IMG/VR virus record: IMGVR_UViG_3300037257_000073
Length of the DNA stretch: 24,685 nt
From: a virus
Taxonomy: Duplodnaviria > Heunggongvirae > Uroviricota > Caudoviricetes
Direction: 5' to 3' (one strand)
Made by a program: the position numbers and the translations under genes. The notes under the pieces are model-generated. The model worked only from the letters and a program-made list of their open reading frames with translations, was not told where the DNA came from and did not search any database. Positions 2,106 to 7,325 of this stretch are shown in pieces. Each line of letters starts with the position of its first letter. Within the stretch, counting starts at the first letter, position 1.

Positions 2106-2164
2106 ATACTGCTAATTTTCAATAATATTTATATTATAGATTTTTATTGAATTTTTAGCAGTAT
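2106..2164. repeat. Imperfect inverted repeat overlapping the promoter
   Basis: Left arm ATACTGCTAATTTTCAATAA (2106-2125); right arm TTATTGAATTTTTAGCAGTAT (2144-2164). Confidence 0.6.
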
Positions 2165-2169
2165 CTTTG
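2162..2169 (+). promoter_or_regulatory. Bacteroidota-type sigma70 -7 promoter element
   Basis: TATCTTTG matches TAnnTTTG in an intergenic gap, about 25 nt before ATG 2194. No clear -33 element. Confidence 0.6.
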
Positions 2170-2193
2170 TAGTATAGAAAATGAGAATGATAT

Positions 2194-2622
2194 ATGGAAG
2201 AAATACTAAAGAAATTTAATTACAAACCCACAGAAGAAAATACTTGGGTTAAAGGTGAATGGACTGTTAGATTTGATGATGAACTCGTCGAAGTTTTTAA
2301 CGATCCTAATAAAAGTGCAGGCGAATATTATAGTTCACCAATTGCAACAGTAGATTTAGAATTAATATTAATGGAAGTTGATAGGAAAAATCGCTGACCA
2401 ATCGTTACTATGGTTACTGATATGATTACCGATGTAAATGCAGAATCAGAAAATGCAACTGGAAATACTTATATAATGTTTACTCCTCATAGAGTATGGT
2501 TAAAAGATTGGTTAAGGTTATGGGGTCAAGAAGAAAATGGAAGTTATTCTATTACAGGTAACAATATCTTTGTTGTTGATTCAACACTAAGTAAAGTAAT
2601 AGATATTACAAAACTAATATAA
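2194..2622 (+). CDS. Hypothetical protein (142 aa with TGA=Trp; track fragments 67 + 70 aa)
   Basis: Track ORFs 2194..2397 and 2410..2622 are in the same frame, separated only by TGA 2395-2397 plus four sense codons. Two separate genes cannot be excluded. Confidence 0.55.
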
Positions 2623-2651
2623 AAGTTAGAGGTTCTTTAAAACCTCATCAT

Positions 2652-2724
2652 ACCTTTGTAGTGTAATGGTTAGCACACAAATCTTCAAAATTTGTAAGTG
2701 TGAGTTCGAGTCTTACCAAGGGTG
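2652..2724 (+). tRNA. Opal-suppressor tRNA-Trp, anticodon TCA
   Basis: Full cloverleaf: acceptor ACCTTTG/CAAGGGT; D arm GTGT-AATGGTTA-GCAC; anticodon arm CAAAT-CTTCAAA-ATTTG (TCA at 2685-2687); 5-nt variable loop; T arm GTGAG-TTCGAGT-CTTAC; discriminator G. A1-U72 and G73 fit tRNA-Trp identity. No encoded CCA. Confidence 0.93.
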
Positions 2725-2742
2725 CAAAATGATAGAATAAAT

Positions 2743-3309
2743 ATGAATAGAACAAGTAAAGAAGAATTAGAAAAACTAATATTAATAGATAAGTTATCAT
2801 ATGCTGAAATAGCAAGAACATTTGGTGTATCTGATGTTACTATTAGAACCTGGGCAATTAAACTAGGGATAAATATTCCTAGCCGAAAAAAAATATTGGA
2901 AAATAAGATATGTTTAAATTGTAATAATGAATTTAAACCATCTGGAACTACAAATAAATATTGTAGTCAACAATGTTCAAATGAACATAAAATAATTTTA
3001 AATTATGAAAAATATAAATTAGATAATTCCATACTTTATGGACAATCTAATATGTCAAATTATAAAAAACATTTTTTAAAAGAACAAGATTATAAATGTA
3101 CAATTTGTGGAAATCCGAATACTTGGAATGATAAAGAATTGGTATTTGTTTTAGATCACATTGATGGTAATGCTGATAATAATGAACGTAGCAATTTAAG
3201 GTGTATATGTCCTAATTGCGATAGTCAACTTGATACATTTAAATCTAAAAATAAAAATAGTGCTAGAGCAAAATACAGACAAACTTTAAAGGTGGAGGAA
3301 TGTGTATAA
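2743..3309 (+). CDS. HNH endonuclease with N-terminal HTH and Zn-binding motifs (probable free-standing homing endonuclease)
   Basis: N-terminal HTH (LSYAEIARTFGVSDVTIRTW), CxxC motifs, and C-terminal CTICG...LDHIDGNADNNERSNLRCICPNCDSQ. The track GTG start at 2722 overlaps the tRNA, so ATG 2743 is preferred. Confidence 0.85.
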   Translation: MNRTSKEELEKLILIDKLSYAEIARTFGVSDVTIRTWAIKLGINIPSRKKILENKICLNCNNEFKPSGTTNKYCSQQCSNEHKIILNYEKYKLDNSILYGQSNMSNYKKHFLKEQDYKCTICGNPNTWNDKELVFVLDHIDGNADNNERSNLRCICPNCDSQLDTFKSKNKNSARAKYRQTLKVEECV

Positions 3310-3488
3310 TGACCGAACTAGAACAAAAAATAATAGAATTAAGAAAAGAAGGATTAAGTTATAGAAATATTCAAATAAAATTAGGTAATCCTTCTAAAAA
3401 ATTTATAAGAGAAACACTTTTACAATACACTCCGGATTTAGTTGGAGATATAGTAAAAAATTATAATAAACTAGAACCTAAATGGTAA
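3309..3488 (+). CDS. Small HTH DNA-binding protein (59 aa)
   Basis: TAATG stop/start coupling with the HNH gene; EQKIIELRKEGLSYRNIQIKLG is an HTH-like pattern. Confidence 0.65.
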   Translation: MTELEQKIIELRKEGLSYRNIQIKLGNPSKKFIRETLLQYTPDLVGDIVKNYNKLEPKW

Positions 3489-3564
3489 CTAAGAAATAGT
3501 GTAAGGTATATGACAACAGGGATTCTATATCCATTAAATGATAATCTCATATCAACCAAGCACC

Positions 3565-3595
3565 AAGCCCATTATCAAAAGTAGTGGGCTTTTTT
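3565..3595 (+). terminator. Rho-independent terminator
   Basis: AAGCCCATTAT-caaaa-GTAGTGGGCTT stem followed by a T run. Confidence 0.8.
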
Positions 3596-3656
3596 AATAA
3601 TTAAATAAACAATTAGAGGAAACAAACAGAAACTCTTAATTAAAATTAAACAAAGA

Positions 3657-5921
3657 ATGAACGCAGGAAAGAAATTTTTGAGTGACTTAAAACTTCACTC
3701 TGACTACTTAAAGTGGAGACCAGAAGAAGGTCGATACGAAACATGGAATGAAGCATGTGAGTCTATAATCAATGGTCATAAAGATCATTATGCAGATGTA
3801 GACCTAAGTAAAGAATTAGAATACGCATTGAAATATATGCAATCTAAAACGGTACTAGCTTCACAACGAAATCTACAGTATAGAAATGAGCAGATCGAAC
3901 GTAACAATGCAAGACTTTATAATTGTTCATCTATGTATGCTGCTAGAAATAAAATATTCCAAGAAGTATTTTACTTAGCATTAAGTGGTTGTGGTGTAGG
4001 ATTAGGATTACTTATTCCTTTTGTGAATAACATTTCACAAGTAAATAAAAGAACTAAAGGGACTAAAACATTTATTGTTCCCGATTCAATTGAAGGATGG
4101 TCTGATGCATTTGGTGTATTGATGTCATCATTCTTCATTGATAAACAACCTTTTCCAGAGTATGCAGGATACGAAATTAAATTTGACTATTCAGAAGTAA
4201 GAGAAAAAGGTGCATTCATTAGTGGAGGATTCAAAGCTCCAGGACCTGATGGTTTAAAACAATCATTTGAAAAGATCGAAGAGTTCTTAAATAAATGGAT
4301 TACATCAGAAGGCACTAAACTAAGACCAATCGCTGTATGTGATATTCTATGTCACATCTCAGACGCAGTATTATCAGGTGGAGTTAGACGTTCTGCTCTT
4401 AACATGATTGTTGATCCAAATGATGATGAAATGATTAATGCTAAAGTTGGTAACTGGAGAACTAATAACCCACAACGTGGAAGAACAAATAATTCGGTGT
4501 TACTTCTTAGAAGTTTAACCGGAAAAGAAGAATTTGAAAAGCTTGTTAAAATGAATGATGGATATTCTGACATTGGTTTTGCATTTGCTAACTCATGGTT
4601 TGATATGTTCAATCCTTGTTTCGAAATTCTTAAACACCCAATTCTTCATTCAAAAATTAGTACAAAAATAAATGATGTATCTTATGATAAGATAGAAGAA
4701 TTTATTAGAGATAATGAAGACAAACTAGGTGTAGCATTCTGTAATCTTTGTGAGATTAATGCAGAACAATGTGATATAGTTGAGAATTTTTATTCTGCGT
4801 GTATTGCTGGTGCAATCATTGGAACACTACAAGCAGGTTATACATCATTTCCTTATCTTGGAGAAACCACTGAAAAGATTGTAAGACAAGAAGCTCTATT
4901 AGGAGTATCTGTTACAGGATGGATGAATAACCCAATGTTGTTTAACACCGACATTTTAAAACATGGTGCATCTTTAGTTAAAGAAACAAACAAGACAATA
5001 GCTGAAAAGATTGGAATTAATCAAGCTGCTAGAACGACATGTGTTAAACCATCGGGTAATGCATCTGTAGTATTGGGAACTGCGTCAGGTATTCATCCTG
5101 AACATTCTCAAAAGTATTTTAGAATCATGCAACTAAACAAAGAAAACGATACAGCCAAATGGTTGAACAAACATATGTCTTATCTTTTAGAAGAAAGTGT
5201 TTGGTCAAGTACTGGATCTGATTATGTTGTATTTGTTCCTATTGAGAATCCTATTGAGGGATTATATAAGAAAGACGTAAAAGGTGTTAAACATCTTGAA
5301 CTAATAAAACTAGTACAATTAAATTGGGTAAATGAGGGAACTAATCGCGATCTATGTGCATATCCTGATGTGAATCATAATACATCTAATACTGTTATTG
5401 TTGATGATCAAAAAGCTGTTATAGATTATATTTGGAATAACAAACATGACTTTACAGCAGTATCCTTTATATCTGATTACGGAGATAAAGATTTTACACA
5501 AGCTCCATTCACATCTGTATCTTCATTAGATCAACTAATGAGTGACTATGGAAAAGGTGCATTATTCGCATCTGGATTAATTGTTGATGGACTACATTAT
5601 TTTAACGACAATCTTTGGATTGCTTGTGATATGATTAAAGATAAATCAGTTCCTATTACTGGAACAAGAGAACAAGTAATGCTTAAGAAATATTGGTTGG
5701 CTAGAGCAAAGAAATTTGCTAACAACTTCTTTGGAGGAGATTTACAAAAGACTGTATATTGTTTAAAAGATGTACATCTATTTCATAAATGGGAAGTAAT
5801 TAATAGACAATTTAAACCAGTTGACTTTGGAGAGATTCTAAACAAGCCAACATATAAAGACATTAGTGACACAGCGGCCCAAGCTTGTAGCGGAGGTTCA
5901 TGTGAGATCACTAGATTATAA
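3657..5921 (+). CDS. nrdJ: Ribonucleotide reductase catalytic subunit, most like monomeric class II (RTPR/NrdJm)
   Basis: 754 aa with LYNCS, GGVRRSA, NPCFEI, CNLCEIN, TCVKPSG and C-terminal CSGGSCE motifs. No nrdB in the window. All 14 Trp codons are TGG. Confidence 0.8.
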   Translation: MNAGKKFLSDLKLHSDYLKWRPEEGRYETWNEACESIINGHKDHYADVDLSKELEYALKYMQSKTVLASQRNLQYRNEQIERNNARLYNCSSMYAARNKIFQEVFYLALSGCGVGLGLLIPFVNNISQVNKRTKGTKTFIVPDSIEGWSDAFGVLMSSFFIDKQPFPEYAGYEIKFDYSEVREKGAFISGGFKAPGPDGLKQSFEKIEEFLNKWITSEGTKLRPIAVCDILCHISDAVLSGGVRRSALNMIVDPNDDEMINAKVGNWRTNNPQRGRTNNSVLLLRSLTGKEEFEKLVKMNDGYSDIGFAFANSWFDMFNPCFEILKHPILHSKISTKINDVSYDKIEEFIRDNEDKLGVAFCNLCEINAEQCDIVENFYSACIAGAIIGTLQAGYTSFPYLGETTEKIVRQEALLGVSVTGWMNNPMLFNTDILKHGASLVKETNKTIAEKIGINQAARTTCVKPSGNASVVLGTASGIHPEHSQKYFRIMQLNKENDTAKWLNKHMSYLLEESVWSSTGSDYVVFVPIENPIEGLYKKDVKGVKHLELIKLVQLNWVNEGTNRDLCAYPDVNHNTSNTVIVDDQKAVIDYIWNNKHDFTAVSFISDYGDKDFTQAPFTSVSSLDQLMSDYGKGALFASGLIVDGLHYFNDNLWIACDMIKDKSVPITGTREQVMLKKYWLARAKKFANNFFGGDLQKTVYCLKDVHLFHKWEVINRQFKPVDFGEILNKPTYKDISDTAAQACSGGSCEITRL

Positions 5922-5937
5922 ACTTAACAAACAATTT

Positions 5938-6648
5938 ATGGGAAAAGGCACACGAGAAAAGCGTACTGAGAAACGCGAGAAAAACAGATTACCCGAAAAA
6001 CAATCTAACTTAGTAAATGATTTCAAACCAAAGAATGAGAAACAACAAGAGTTTATTAACCTTATAAATGATAGAGAGATTATCATTGCTACAGGTCCTG
6101 CTGGAACAGGTAAGACATATGTAACATTAGCAACAGCTTTATCATTATTAGGTTCAATCTATAAAAAGGTTATTCTTGTAAAGTCAGTAACTACTATTCC
6201 CGGAGAAGAAATAGGATTCCTTAAAGGTGGAATGGAACAGAAAATGGAACCATTTATAATGTCTTATATGTGAAATATTGATAAGATCTGCGGAGATAAA
6301 TCTGCACAGAACTTACTTGATAAAAAAATAATTGAAGTATTACCACTAGCTTTTATTAGAGGTTTATCAATTGATAATGCTATTGTAATAATCGATGAAG
6401 CACAAAACATAGATAATCATACTTTTAAAACAATGATGACTAGAATTGGAGAAAACTCAAAATACATTCTTCTTGGAGATAGTGAACAAATAGATAGACG
6501 TAAGAAAAGCGAATCGTGTTTAGCGAAAGTTATTGAGATATTTACTGATTCAGATATTATTGGATCAATAGAATTTAAAGATGAGGATTGTGTGAGAAAT
6601 CCAATCATTCCTATAATTTTATCTAAACTAAGAGAGAACGGAATCTAA
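5938..6648 (+). CDS. phoH: PhoH-family ATPase (236 aa, one in-frame TGA at 6271)
   Basis: Walker A GPAGTGKT, GEEIGFLKG, LAFIRG, Walker B IIDEAQN, TRIGENSK and LGDSEQID are all in one frame across TGA 6271-6273. Confidence 0.92.
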
Positions 6649-6773: not shown

Positions 6774-6781
6774 TACCTTTG
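6774..6781 (+). promoter_or_regulatory. Bacteroidota-type -7 promoter element
   Basis: TACCTTTG (TAnnTTTG) in the intergenic gap upstream of the long operon starting at 6867. Confidence 0.55.
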
Positions 6782-6866: not shown

Positions 6867-7325
6867 ATGACAGAATTACTAGTAGGCGGTGCAGTAACAA
6901 TTGCAGTATCAGCATTTACTTTCCTTTTAGGAAAGGGTAAAAATCAAGCTGAAACAGAAAAGCTTGAAAAAGAAACAGAGAAAATAGAAATCGAGACTAA
7001 GTTCGATGAGGTTAAATTACTTAAAGAAATTAATCAAAACTTATCAGATCAATACGAAAAAAATGATAAGAGATGGACTGAACGTTACGCCGAAATGGAA
7101 AAAAAGTGAATGACTATTGTAAGCCAATATGAAGTTTATAAAACTCAAACTGAAAAACGTATTTGTGAACTTGAAGAAATTGTAAAGAATCAAGATAGAG
7201 ATAAATGTTTAGGTGATTTATGTCCTACTAAAATAGAATATAATAAGATCCTAGCAAAAAGATTAGAGAGAAAAAGAAACTCCGCTATGAAAAAATTTAA
7301 TCAAAGCGGTACAAAACAGGAATAA
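6867..7325 (+). CDS. N-terminally membrane-anchored coiled-coil protein (152 aa with TGA 7107=Trp); possibly holin-like or lysis-associated
   Basis: Hydrophobic N-terminus (LLVGGAVTIAVSAFTFLLG) followed by a long coiled coil. The two track ORFs join in frame at TGA-ATG. Confidence 0.6.

Follow-up and report, generated by a model that had tools for sequence, protein, structure and literature searches.

How recoded phages overcome the release factor of their host is an open question; most of them carry a suppressor transfer RNA (tRNA) and encode neither a release factor nor a synthetase (Borges et al., bioRxiv 10.1101/2021.08.26.457843). The stretch of phage DNA analyzed here raises the same question. 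This stretch (the window) is 24,685 nucleotides (nt) from a member of the Caudoviricetes and is part of the 64.8-kb IMG/VR virus record IMGVR_UViG_3300037257_000073 (G000; CheckV completeness 39%). In the window, an open reading frame (ORF) at 2194..2622 is followed by an opal suppressor tRNA with the anticodon UCA, tRNA(UCA), at 2652..2724, and all features of this locus are on the + strand. We see about an even chance that the locus is a two-part code switch, composed of a protein directed against release factor 2 (RF2) of the host and the suppressor tRNA.

We postulate that the protein and the tRNA would be made early from one transcript. The amino-terminal domain of the ORF product (the N domain) would bind host RF2 at its switch loop, around Trp319, and at its domain-2 sheet, at Val198 and Phe217. 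The bound surface would be the one that RF2 needs at the decoding center of the ribosome, and termination at UGA would be blocked or weakened. The tRNA(UCA), charged by the host tryptophanyl-tRNA synthetase (TrpRS), would read UGA as Trp. Loss of RF2 would cost the phage nothing and would harm the host, because the phage genes end in TAA or TAG, which are read by release factor 1 (RF1). We found no paper in the literature describing a phage protein that inhibits RF2. A more far-reaching version, to which we assign slightly less than an even chance, is that the N domain is the first phage-encoded inhibitor of a class I release factor, abolishing UGA termination, and that together with tRNA(UCA) it makes up a minimal two-gene device for code rewriting and host shutoff, to which, in the window lineage, the TGA at the domain junction of the ORF would add a long isoform that depends on suppression.

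TGA recoding and the gene next to tRNA(UCA)

The window phage is a member of a family of phages of about 170-180 kb that read TGA as Trp, and the hosts of this family are probably Bacteroidota. Loci of relatives, given here by L numbers, were gathered from assemblies, IMG/VR and Joint Genome Institute (JGI) metagenomes. Relatives are present on contigs of 163-178 kb, and one of these (G001, 178 kb) was rated 100% complete. Trp-type codons (TGA or TGG) in the window are divided by position, with 1 TGA and 24 TGG up to 5921 and 52 TGA and 21 TGG after 5866. The window genes end in TAA (29) or TAG (1) and never in TGA. In alignments with relatives, TGG is the commonest sense codon opposite an in-frame TGA, and within the family of the ORF at 2194..2622, TGA and TGG are swapped at W102, W106 and W110. 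Based on the codon split, the absence of TGA stops and the alignment of TGA with TGG, we conclude that the window phage is recoded (TGA read as Trp) and belongs to the type of phage that Borges et al. surveyed.

A preliminary description of this DNA, made from the letters and a list of ORFs, had pointed out that neither a release factor nor TrpRS is encoded in the window. This is true well beyond the window: there is no match to the RF-1 domain (PF00472) or to the class Ib synthetase/TrpRS-type domain (PF00579) in the 64.8-kb record or in the complete 178-kb relative. Since a complete relative has no such domain, the phage must use the TrpRS of its host and must outcompete the host RF2.

With read-through of the TGA at 2395-2397, the sole in-frame TGA before 6271, the ORF at 2194..2622 extends over 142 codons. 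An exhaustive profile-free search (31 representatives, 48 clusters) found homologues that are mostly 62-85 amino acids long and match residues 1-66 only, and a few that match residues 68-140 only. Because homologues match either half alone, the 142-residue ORF is a fusion of two modules. The first, the N domain (2194..2394, 67 codons), is a conserved small acidic protein (median isoelectric point 4.5) and, from its homologues and the complex prediction described below, a candidate RF2 binder. Its residues W23, R26, E33, F35 and Y45 show little or no variation. Over 17 lineages, the N domain contains 33 TGG codons and not one TGA, compared to 52 TGA and 21 TGG in the genes located later in the window (p 2e-13, Fisher test). 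With no TGA in any of these lineages, the N domain can always be translated under the standard code.

Neither the ORF nor either of its halves has a match in Pfam (E <=0.01) or PHROGs, and tblastn against 50,697 GenBank phage records gave no homologue. Structure jobs used a natural TGA-free homologue, P0004 (L001-L006), whose full model has a predicted local distance difference test score (pLDDT) of 81. The AlphaFold model of the N domain consists of a helix, four strands and a second helix (pLDDT about 95). Searches with the P0004 model gave nothing decisive in the PDB with Foldseek (best E 0.16) or in BFVD (best E 0.014). VIA-align (wide) gave a best Z of 5.8 and only generic alpha-beta binders (type III secretion system chaperones, frataxin and PsiB). 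Matches in the ESM Atlas had a template modeling (TM) score of at most 0.45, and the Atlas feature search returned no usable match. A search for longer fused forms gave only two C-terminally extended proteins, both without a known domain.

The co-occurrence of the ORF with an opal suppressor tRNA, which the preliminary description had raised, is found throughout the family. In all 19 lineages that could be evaluated, down to 28-30% identity, tRNA(UCA) comes directly after the N-domain gene or, if a C domain is present, after that domain. Evaluable lineages are those with enough downstream sequence, and L007 and L022 end too early. Two of the 19 were counted by eye rather than by ARAGORN: L025, which has an aberrant T loop, and L040/41, in which the tRNA is split, as it is in L011, a further locus that was read by eye. 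The flanks of the pair vary. Upstream there is a 153-amino-acid gene or, on the other strand, a lysozyme or a 603-amino-acid gene; downstream there is ribonucleotide reductase or PhoH. In the complete relative G001, whose N-domain protein has 70 residues, the suppressor tRNA (161246-161336) is next to the N-domain gene and ~128 kb away from an array of about 25 tRNAs (C1:19792-33584), of which it is not a member. The pairing of the N-domain gene with tRNA(UCA) is more than inherited synteny, because the flanks differ, the tRNA stands apart from the array and, as described below, the body of the tRNA has been replaced repeatedly. The conserved core of the locus consists of a promoter, an acidic protein of ~65 residues, tRNA(UCA), a structured RNA and a terminator.

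Alternatively, the small protein may come from an early gene with an unrelated function, such as a chaperone-like or anti-defence one, that shares a strong early promoter and carries the tRNA in the 3' untranslated region of its abundant mRNA. We think that this is unlikely, though far from negligible. Such a gene would account for the absence of an assigned family or fold and for structural neighbors that are generic alpha-beta binders with Z of at most 5.8. The lineages belong to one phage family in which gene order is broadly conserved, and the tRNA swaps show that the protein is independent of the tRNA body. However, gene and tRNA have stayed adjacent although both flanks changed and the tRNA was replaced three times or more. 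Furthermore, the suppressor tRNA is kept apart from the tRNA array, and the predicted complex with RF2 stands up to its controls.

The second module of the ORF, the C domain (2398..2622, 75 codons, stop TAA), is accessory. It would be made by read-through of the in-frame TGA at codon 68 (2395..2397), at the junction of the two domains, or possibly from an ATG at 2410. A profile of the C domain matches only the window clade, in which it is fused, and L016 and L021/L029, in which it is a separate gene, overlapping or adjacent. In 11 of 17 lineages there is a true TAA or TAG 0-5 codons past the N domain, and in relatives such as L010, L021, L031 and L035 this stop is at the site of the window's TGA, one codon past the last of the N domain. 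The TGA gate is peculiar to this lineage and results from the fusion of an accessory domain at a former stop. Because the fusion runs in frame through TGA, the standard code gives a 67-residue protein and suppression adds a longer isoform. The TGA at the junction is followed by C. We considered a context effect of TGA-C and make no claim for one, since the base following in-frame TGAs is unbiased.

The preliminary description had proposed a different role for this TGA, namely that the ORF is a sensor or positive-feedback element that becomes full length only under suppression, that being its purpose. Two observations are in keeping with a sensor. The only in-frame TGA of the first 5.9 kb lies in this ORF. 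In three of the four lineages of the fused clade, all TGAs are located from the domain junction onward, so that suppression is required for the C domain but never for the N domain. But the TGA is not kept in homologues, the close ones of which carry 0, 1, 3 or 3 TGAs. P0004 (L001-L006) has no TGA at all, with TAT at codon 68. L007 shares the TGA at codon 68 with the window and has two more, at codons 102 and 110. L008 (P0005) has Tyr at codon 68 and TGA at codons 86, 105 and 109. TGA is found at Trp positions of the C domain in L007 and L008, and TGA at Trp positions is simply common outside the first genes of the phage. In addition, the C domain is missing from most lineages. It had been considered that the two halves might always be found as two genes; they are separate in L016 and L021 but fused in the window clade. 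Since the TGA is not kept and the second half is accessory, a sensor role is at best peculiar to the window lineage, and we regard it as very improbable.

The predicted complex with RF2

The N domain is predicted to bind RF2. The input was residues 1-67 of P0004, with an alignment of 30 rows, and the partner was E. coli RF2 (RF2_ECOLI). The interaction prediction score from aligned errors (ipSAE) was 0.72, 0.67 and 0.68, compared to 0.10 for the highest of three controls. At least 84% of the contacts recur between runs, and the pLDDT of the partner is at least 83. The pass mark used for complexes was reached by 58 of 80 solved pairs and 2 of 110 mismatched pairs, figures that are only a rough guide here since our prediction used its own alignment. 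The preliminary description had suggested that the ORF supplies a missing helper function, as an RF2 antagonist or as a factor for tRNA processing or modification. Of this, the RF2 antagonist gains in-silico support (ipSAE 0.68 versus 0.10). Only the first 65 residues of the ORF are conserved as a unit.

The predicted interface on RF2 comprises residues 135-138, 198, 200, 217, 219, 318-322, 325 and 336. It coincides with two elements of RF2, the switch loop (315-323, including Trp319) and, in the domain-2 sheet beside the SPF motif, Val198 and Phe217. Demo et al. (PMC5378476) described that the switch loop, Val198 and Phe217 of RF2 bind ArfA and explain its specificity for RF2 over RF1, and that the switch loop must engage the decoding center for RF2 to open. 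On the side of the N domain, the 17 residues of the interface include 7 of the 12 most conserved positions (R26, E33, F35, P38, D39, G43 and Y45; hypergeometric p 0.008). The acidity of the N domain fits a decoy for a surface that binds rRNA.

ArfA is a small rescue factor of Proteobacteria that is specific for RF2. The N domain is likewise small and is predicted to contact the same elements of RF2. The coincidence of the two RF2 surfaces could mean that the N domain is itself an ArfA-like rescue factor, recruiting RF2 to stalled ribosomes. We consider this extremely unlikely. The N domain has no relation to ArfA in sequence or fold, and no match in Pfam, the ArfA family included. It is a folded, compact, acidic domain and lacks the basic, disordered C-terminal tail with which ArfA probes the mRNA channel. 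A rescue factor also offers no rationale for linkage to an opal suppressor. The outcome that we propose for the code switch is inhibition of RF2 off the ribosome, in contrast to recruitment on the ribosome by ArfA.

Several points weigh against the code switch. Binding of the N domain to RF2 is a model prediction only. The RF2 used is a stand-in from E. coli, which belongs to another phylum than the presumed Bacteroidota host. RF2 was the only release factor for which the complex was scored. Solved ArfA-RF2 complexes may bias the model toward the ArfA surface. The overlap of the interface with conserved positions is not independent of the model, because conserved surface residues will face any partner. 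In Pfam, PHROGs and the fold searches, the N domain has no relation in sequence or fold to a known protein that binds release factors. The linkage to tRNA(UCA) is partly inherited, since all lineages come from one phage family. Lastly, the single transcript from promoter to terminator that would join the ORF and the tRNA is a prediction.

The code switch can be compared to the 'code change module' of Jade phages, which consists of a suppressor tRNA, TrpRS and RF1 (Borges et al., bioRxiv 10.1101/2021.08.26.457843). Both are compact units written in the standard code, with an opal suppressor tRNA and a helper, and in both cases later genes have in-frame TGA. The fused ORF of the window carries one TGA, located after the N domain, and its unit is otherwise in the standard code. 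However, the unit in the window has neither TrpRS nor RF1, and its helper is a 65-residue protein of no known family. Whereas the Jade module adds RF1, the action proposed here is removal of the competitor RF2. The location differs too: the unit in the window is part of an early block of DNA-metabolism genes and does not precede lysis genes.

The question of how recoded phages overcome the host release factor becomes experimentally testable with a small protein that is always linked to tRNA(UCA) and has a specific predicted target, the RF2 switch loop. If the proposal is true, the N domain would represent a new class of host-takeover factor. It could also be used as a compact tool to suppress opal codons and expand the genetic code, and as a marker gene in searches for TGA-recoded phages.

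Exchange of the suppressor tRNA and its neighbors

The suppressor tRNA of the window (2652..2724) is a class I tRNA that was found by ARAGORN and scores 62.9 bits with the Rfam tRNA model (gathering score 29). It is Trp-like, with A1-U72 and G73, which are identity elements of E. coli tRNA-Trp. From these features, it probably inserts Trp at TGA. A hairpin with a 6-bp stem and the loop CTTTAAA (2629..2646) ends 5 nt before the tRNA. The same hairpin is present in L001, L007 and L008, and it is found with an altered stem in L017 and L025. It likely protects the 3' end of the mRNA after cleavage by RNase P.

The one genomic slot next to the N-domain gene holds three different scaffolds of tRNA(UCA): a Trp-like class I tRNA of 73-74 nt, a long-arm tRNA with an ordinary D arm, and a long-arm tRNA with a long D stem. 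The third has a D stem of 5-6 bp and a 4-nt loop, and it is a weak look-alike of tRNA-Sec (36-41 bits versus a gathering score of 47). Examples of the scaffolds are window 2652-2724, L001:6158-6249, L013:4221-4312, L016:4254-4347 and L010:1414-1507. All of them keep the anticodon loop CUUCAAA, G73 and, in most cases, A1-U72. On the tree of the N domain, the scaffolds are distributed as if at random (10 changes, versus a mean of 9.3 after shuffling). Four sister pairs differ in their scaffold, and two of these are on well-supported branches. As judged from these sequences, the body of the tRNA has been swapped repeatedly while the ORF and the UCA anticodon persisted. In L008, TGA still aligns with TGG, which suggests that the class II-shaped tRNAs also insert Trp. 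Opal tRNA-Trp(UCA) is also found in TGA-recoded gut phages (Agate, Jade and zeta crAss-like), where it shares the UCA anticodon, the Trp-type acceptor and the use of TGA at Trp positions. In the window family, in contrast, the slot holds three scaffolds, some of which are Sec-like with a long arm and some of which are split by an insertion.

The constant parts of these tRNAs bear on the possibility that the protein acts on the side of the tRNA, either by aiding charging by TrpRS or by protecting, processing or delivering tRNA(UCA). In its favor, no phage TrpRS was found. The loop CUUCAAA, G73 and mostly A1-U72 are constant, and a protein that reads the anticodon loop would tolerate swaps of the scaffold. 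On the other hand, an isoelectric point of 4.5 is ill-suited to RNA binding, 65 residues are too few for an enzyme, and the fold searches gave no RNA-binding fold. We therefore view an action on the tRNA as quite improbable and favor an action on RF2.

Some tRNAs of the family depart from the usual forms. In L011:328-594 and L041:2271-2483 (approximate coordinates), an insertion splits the anticodon loop of a long-arm tRNA(UCA) after its CUU. It measures ~267 nt in L011 and a little less in L041, ends in G and is conserved in the two loci. The position of the split and the boundary bases are those expected of a group I tRNA intron, and L010 is an intron-less allele. In Rfam, the ~267-nt insertion of L011 has no match to an intron or other family, even at E up to 10. 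The class I-like tRNA(UCA) of L025 (2773-2845) has the T loop GGCAGGA instead of TTCGAxT and so is missed by tRNA finders; this tRNA is perhaps in decay, or it could be an unusual but functional form. In L001, the suppressor tRNA is immediately followed by a second tRNA-like sequence (6251-6360) with acceptor-like ends, a good T arm and an over-long middle; this sequence is not called by ARAGORN.

Downstream of the tRNA, the window encodes an HNH homing-type endonuclease with an N-terminal helix-turn-helix (HTH) (2743..3309; PHROG HNH, E 8e-22; weak Pfam matches to HNH_3 and Endonuclease_7) and a 59-residue putative HTH protein (3309..3488). The preliminary description had listed these two genes as parts of a self-contained cassette that also comprised the promoter, an overlapping inverted repeat, the ORF with its TGA, the hairpin, the tRNA and a terminator. 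Each listed feature is where that description had placed it. From relatives, the small HTH gene starts at the ATG at 3309 and not at 3300. The gene itself is present, but its designation as HTH is weak: the Pfam match to HTH_SB (E 0.003) is below the cut-off, and the gene has no match above threshold in PHROGs or Pfam.

Membership of the two genes in the cassette did not hold up. The HNH gene is missing from L025 and L035 and also from L001, where the flanks are near-identical. The promoter and terminator regions of L001 and the window are near-identical, and between them L001 has a 58-residue ORF, a long-arm tRNA(UCA) and the second tRNA-like sequence, with no HNH or HTH gene. Homologues of the 59-residue gene follow the class I tRNA in L021, L025 and L035, and the gene was found in none of the class II lineages examined. 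L021 has the layout of the window (N domain, C domain, class I tRNA, HNH, HTH), and in L025 and L035 the class I tRNA is accompanied by the HTH gene but no HNH. From these layouts, the class I tRNA and the HTH gene travel together, with the HNH gene inserted between them. Between the window and L021, identity is 67% for HNH and 71% for HTH, 44% for the N domain and 30% for the C domain.

The HNH gene is a lineage-specific mobile insertion, and the class I tRNA, HNH and HTH probably make up a mobile block that replaced a different tRNA(UCA). The distribution of HNH fits a homing-type spread of the class I version of the recoding determinant. Phages can carry free-standing homing endonucleases beside their tRNA genes; SegB in the T4 tRNA region is one example. 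The HNH gene resembles these in its location 18 nt after the tRNA, its presence and absence between near-identical flanks, and its better conservation than that of its neighbors. However, homing is putative here, and the cargo would be the recoding determinant itself. Repeated exchange of the suppressor tRNA in place, with one form linked to HNH, illustrates how a recoding determinant can move between phages.

The core of the HNH gene (window 3062-3267, about 200 nt) has 77% nucleotide identity to the HNH of the human-gut crAss-like phages cr53_1 and cr116_1, and the remainder of the window has no match in these two phages. The likeness points to an exchange of the endonuclease between distant phage groups. 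In L042 (NCBI GCA_053580305.1, 166,429 bases), which was deposited within a metagenome-assembled genome (MAG) of Candidatus Saccharimonadaceae, there is an N-domain gene followed by a class I tRNA(UCA), a 59-residue gene and PhoH. L042 looks like a genome of the window's phage family that was binned into a bacterial MAG.

Signals of the predicted transcription unit

The ORF is preceded by the -7 promoter element TATCTTTG (2162..2169), 24 nt before the ATG. It fits TAnnTTTG, the -7 consensus of Bacteroidota (sigma-AB) known from Bacteroides promoters. Three TAnnTTTG sequences occur in 834 nt of + strand intergenic DNA, compared to ~0.4 expected from the 13 in the window. The element is also located ahead of the homologous ORF in at least 10 lineages (L001, L007, L008, L010, L013, L016, L017, L019, L024 and L041). 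No clear -33 element (TTTG) was read before the -7 box at 2162. A scan for sigma-70 promoters was without enrichment (13 sites versus 17.7 expected), and the likeness of the 5' end of the tRNA (TACCTTTG at 2651) to a -7 box is regarded as a coincidence, since it is missing in L001.

The right arm of a perfect inverted repeat of 10 nt (2106-2115 and 2155-2164) overlaps the -7 box. L008 and L013 have 13-nt perfect repeats of other sequence at or just upstream of the promoter, and the repeat at 2106..2164 is a possible operator.

Between the tRNA and the terminator there is a structured RNA (3505..3557) that the preliminary description had missed. It is composed of a helix P1 (3505-3513 paired with 3547-3557) around a hairpin P2 (3520-3523 paired with 3529-3532). 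Across 9 lineages, none of the 9 pairs of P1 is broken and 7 have compensatory changes, and the structure is also present in L041. Rfam gave no family for 3505-3557, even at E up to 10. An intrinsic terminator (3565..3597; hairpin 3565-3591 plus a T run) closes the unit ahead of the gene for class II ribonucleotide reductase (3657..5921). The position of the terminator is kept across the 9 lineages and its stem has compensatory changes. The ORF and the tRNA share this unit from promoter to terminator, as had been proposed.

On the + strand of the window, small early genes are followed by the class II ribonucleotide reductase, PhoH, a PD-(D/E)XK protein and GroEL/GroES, and then by structural genes. 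There is no TAnnTTTG between the terminator (3565) and the reductase gene (3657). A further intergenic TAnnTTTG, TACCTTTG, is located at window 6774-6781, in the 218-nt gap before the gene at 6867..7325, and it is likely the promoter of the next transcription unit.

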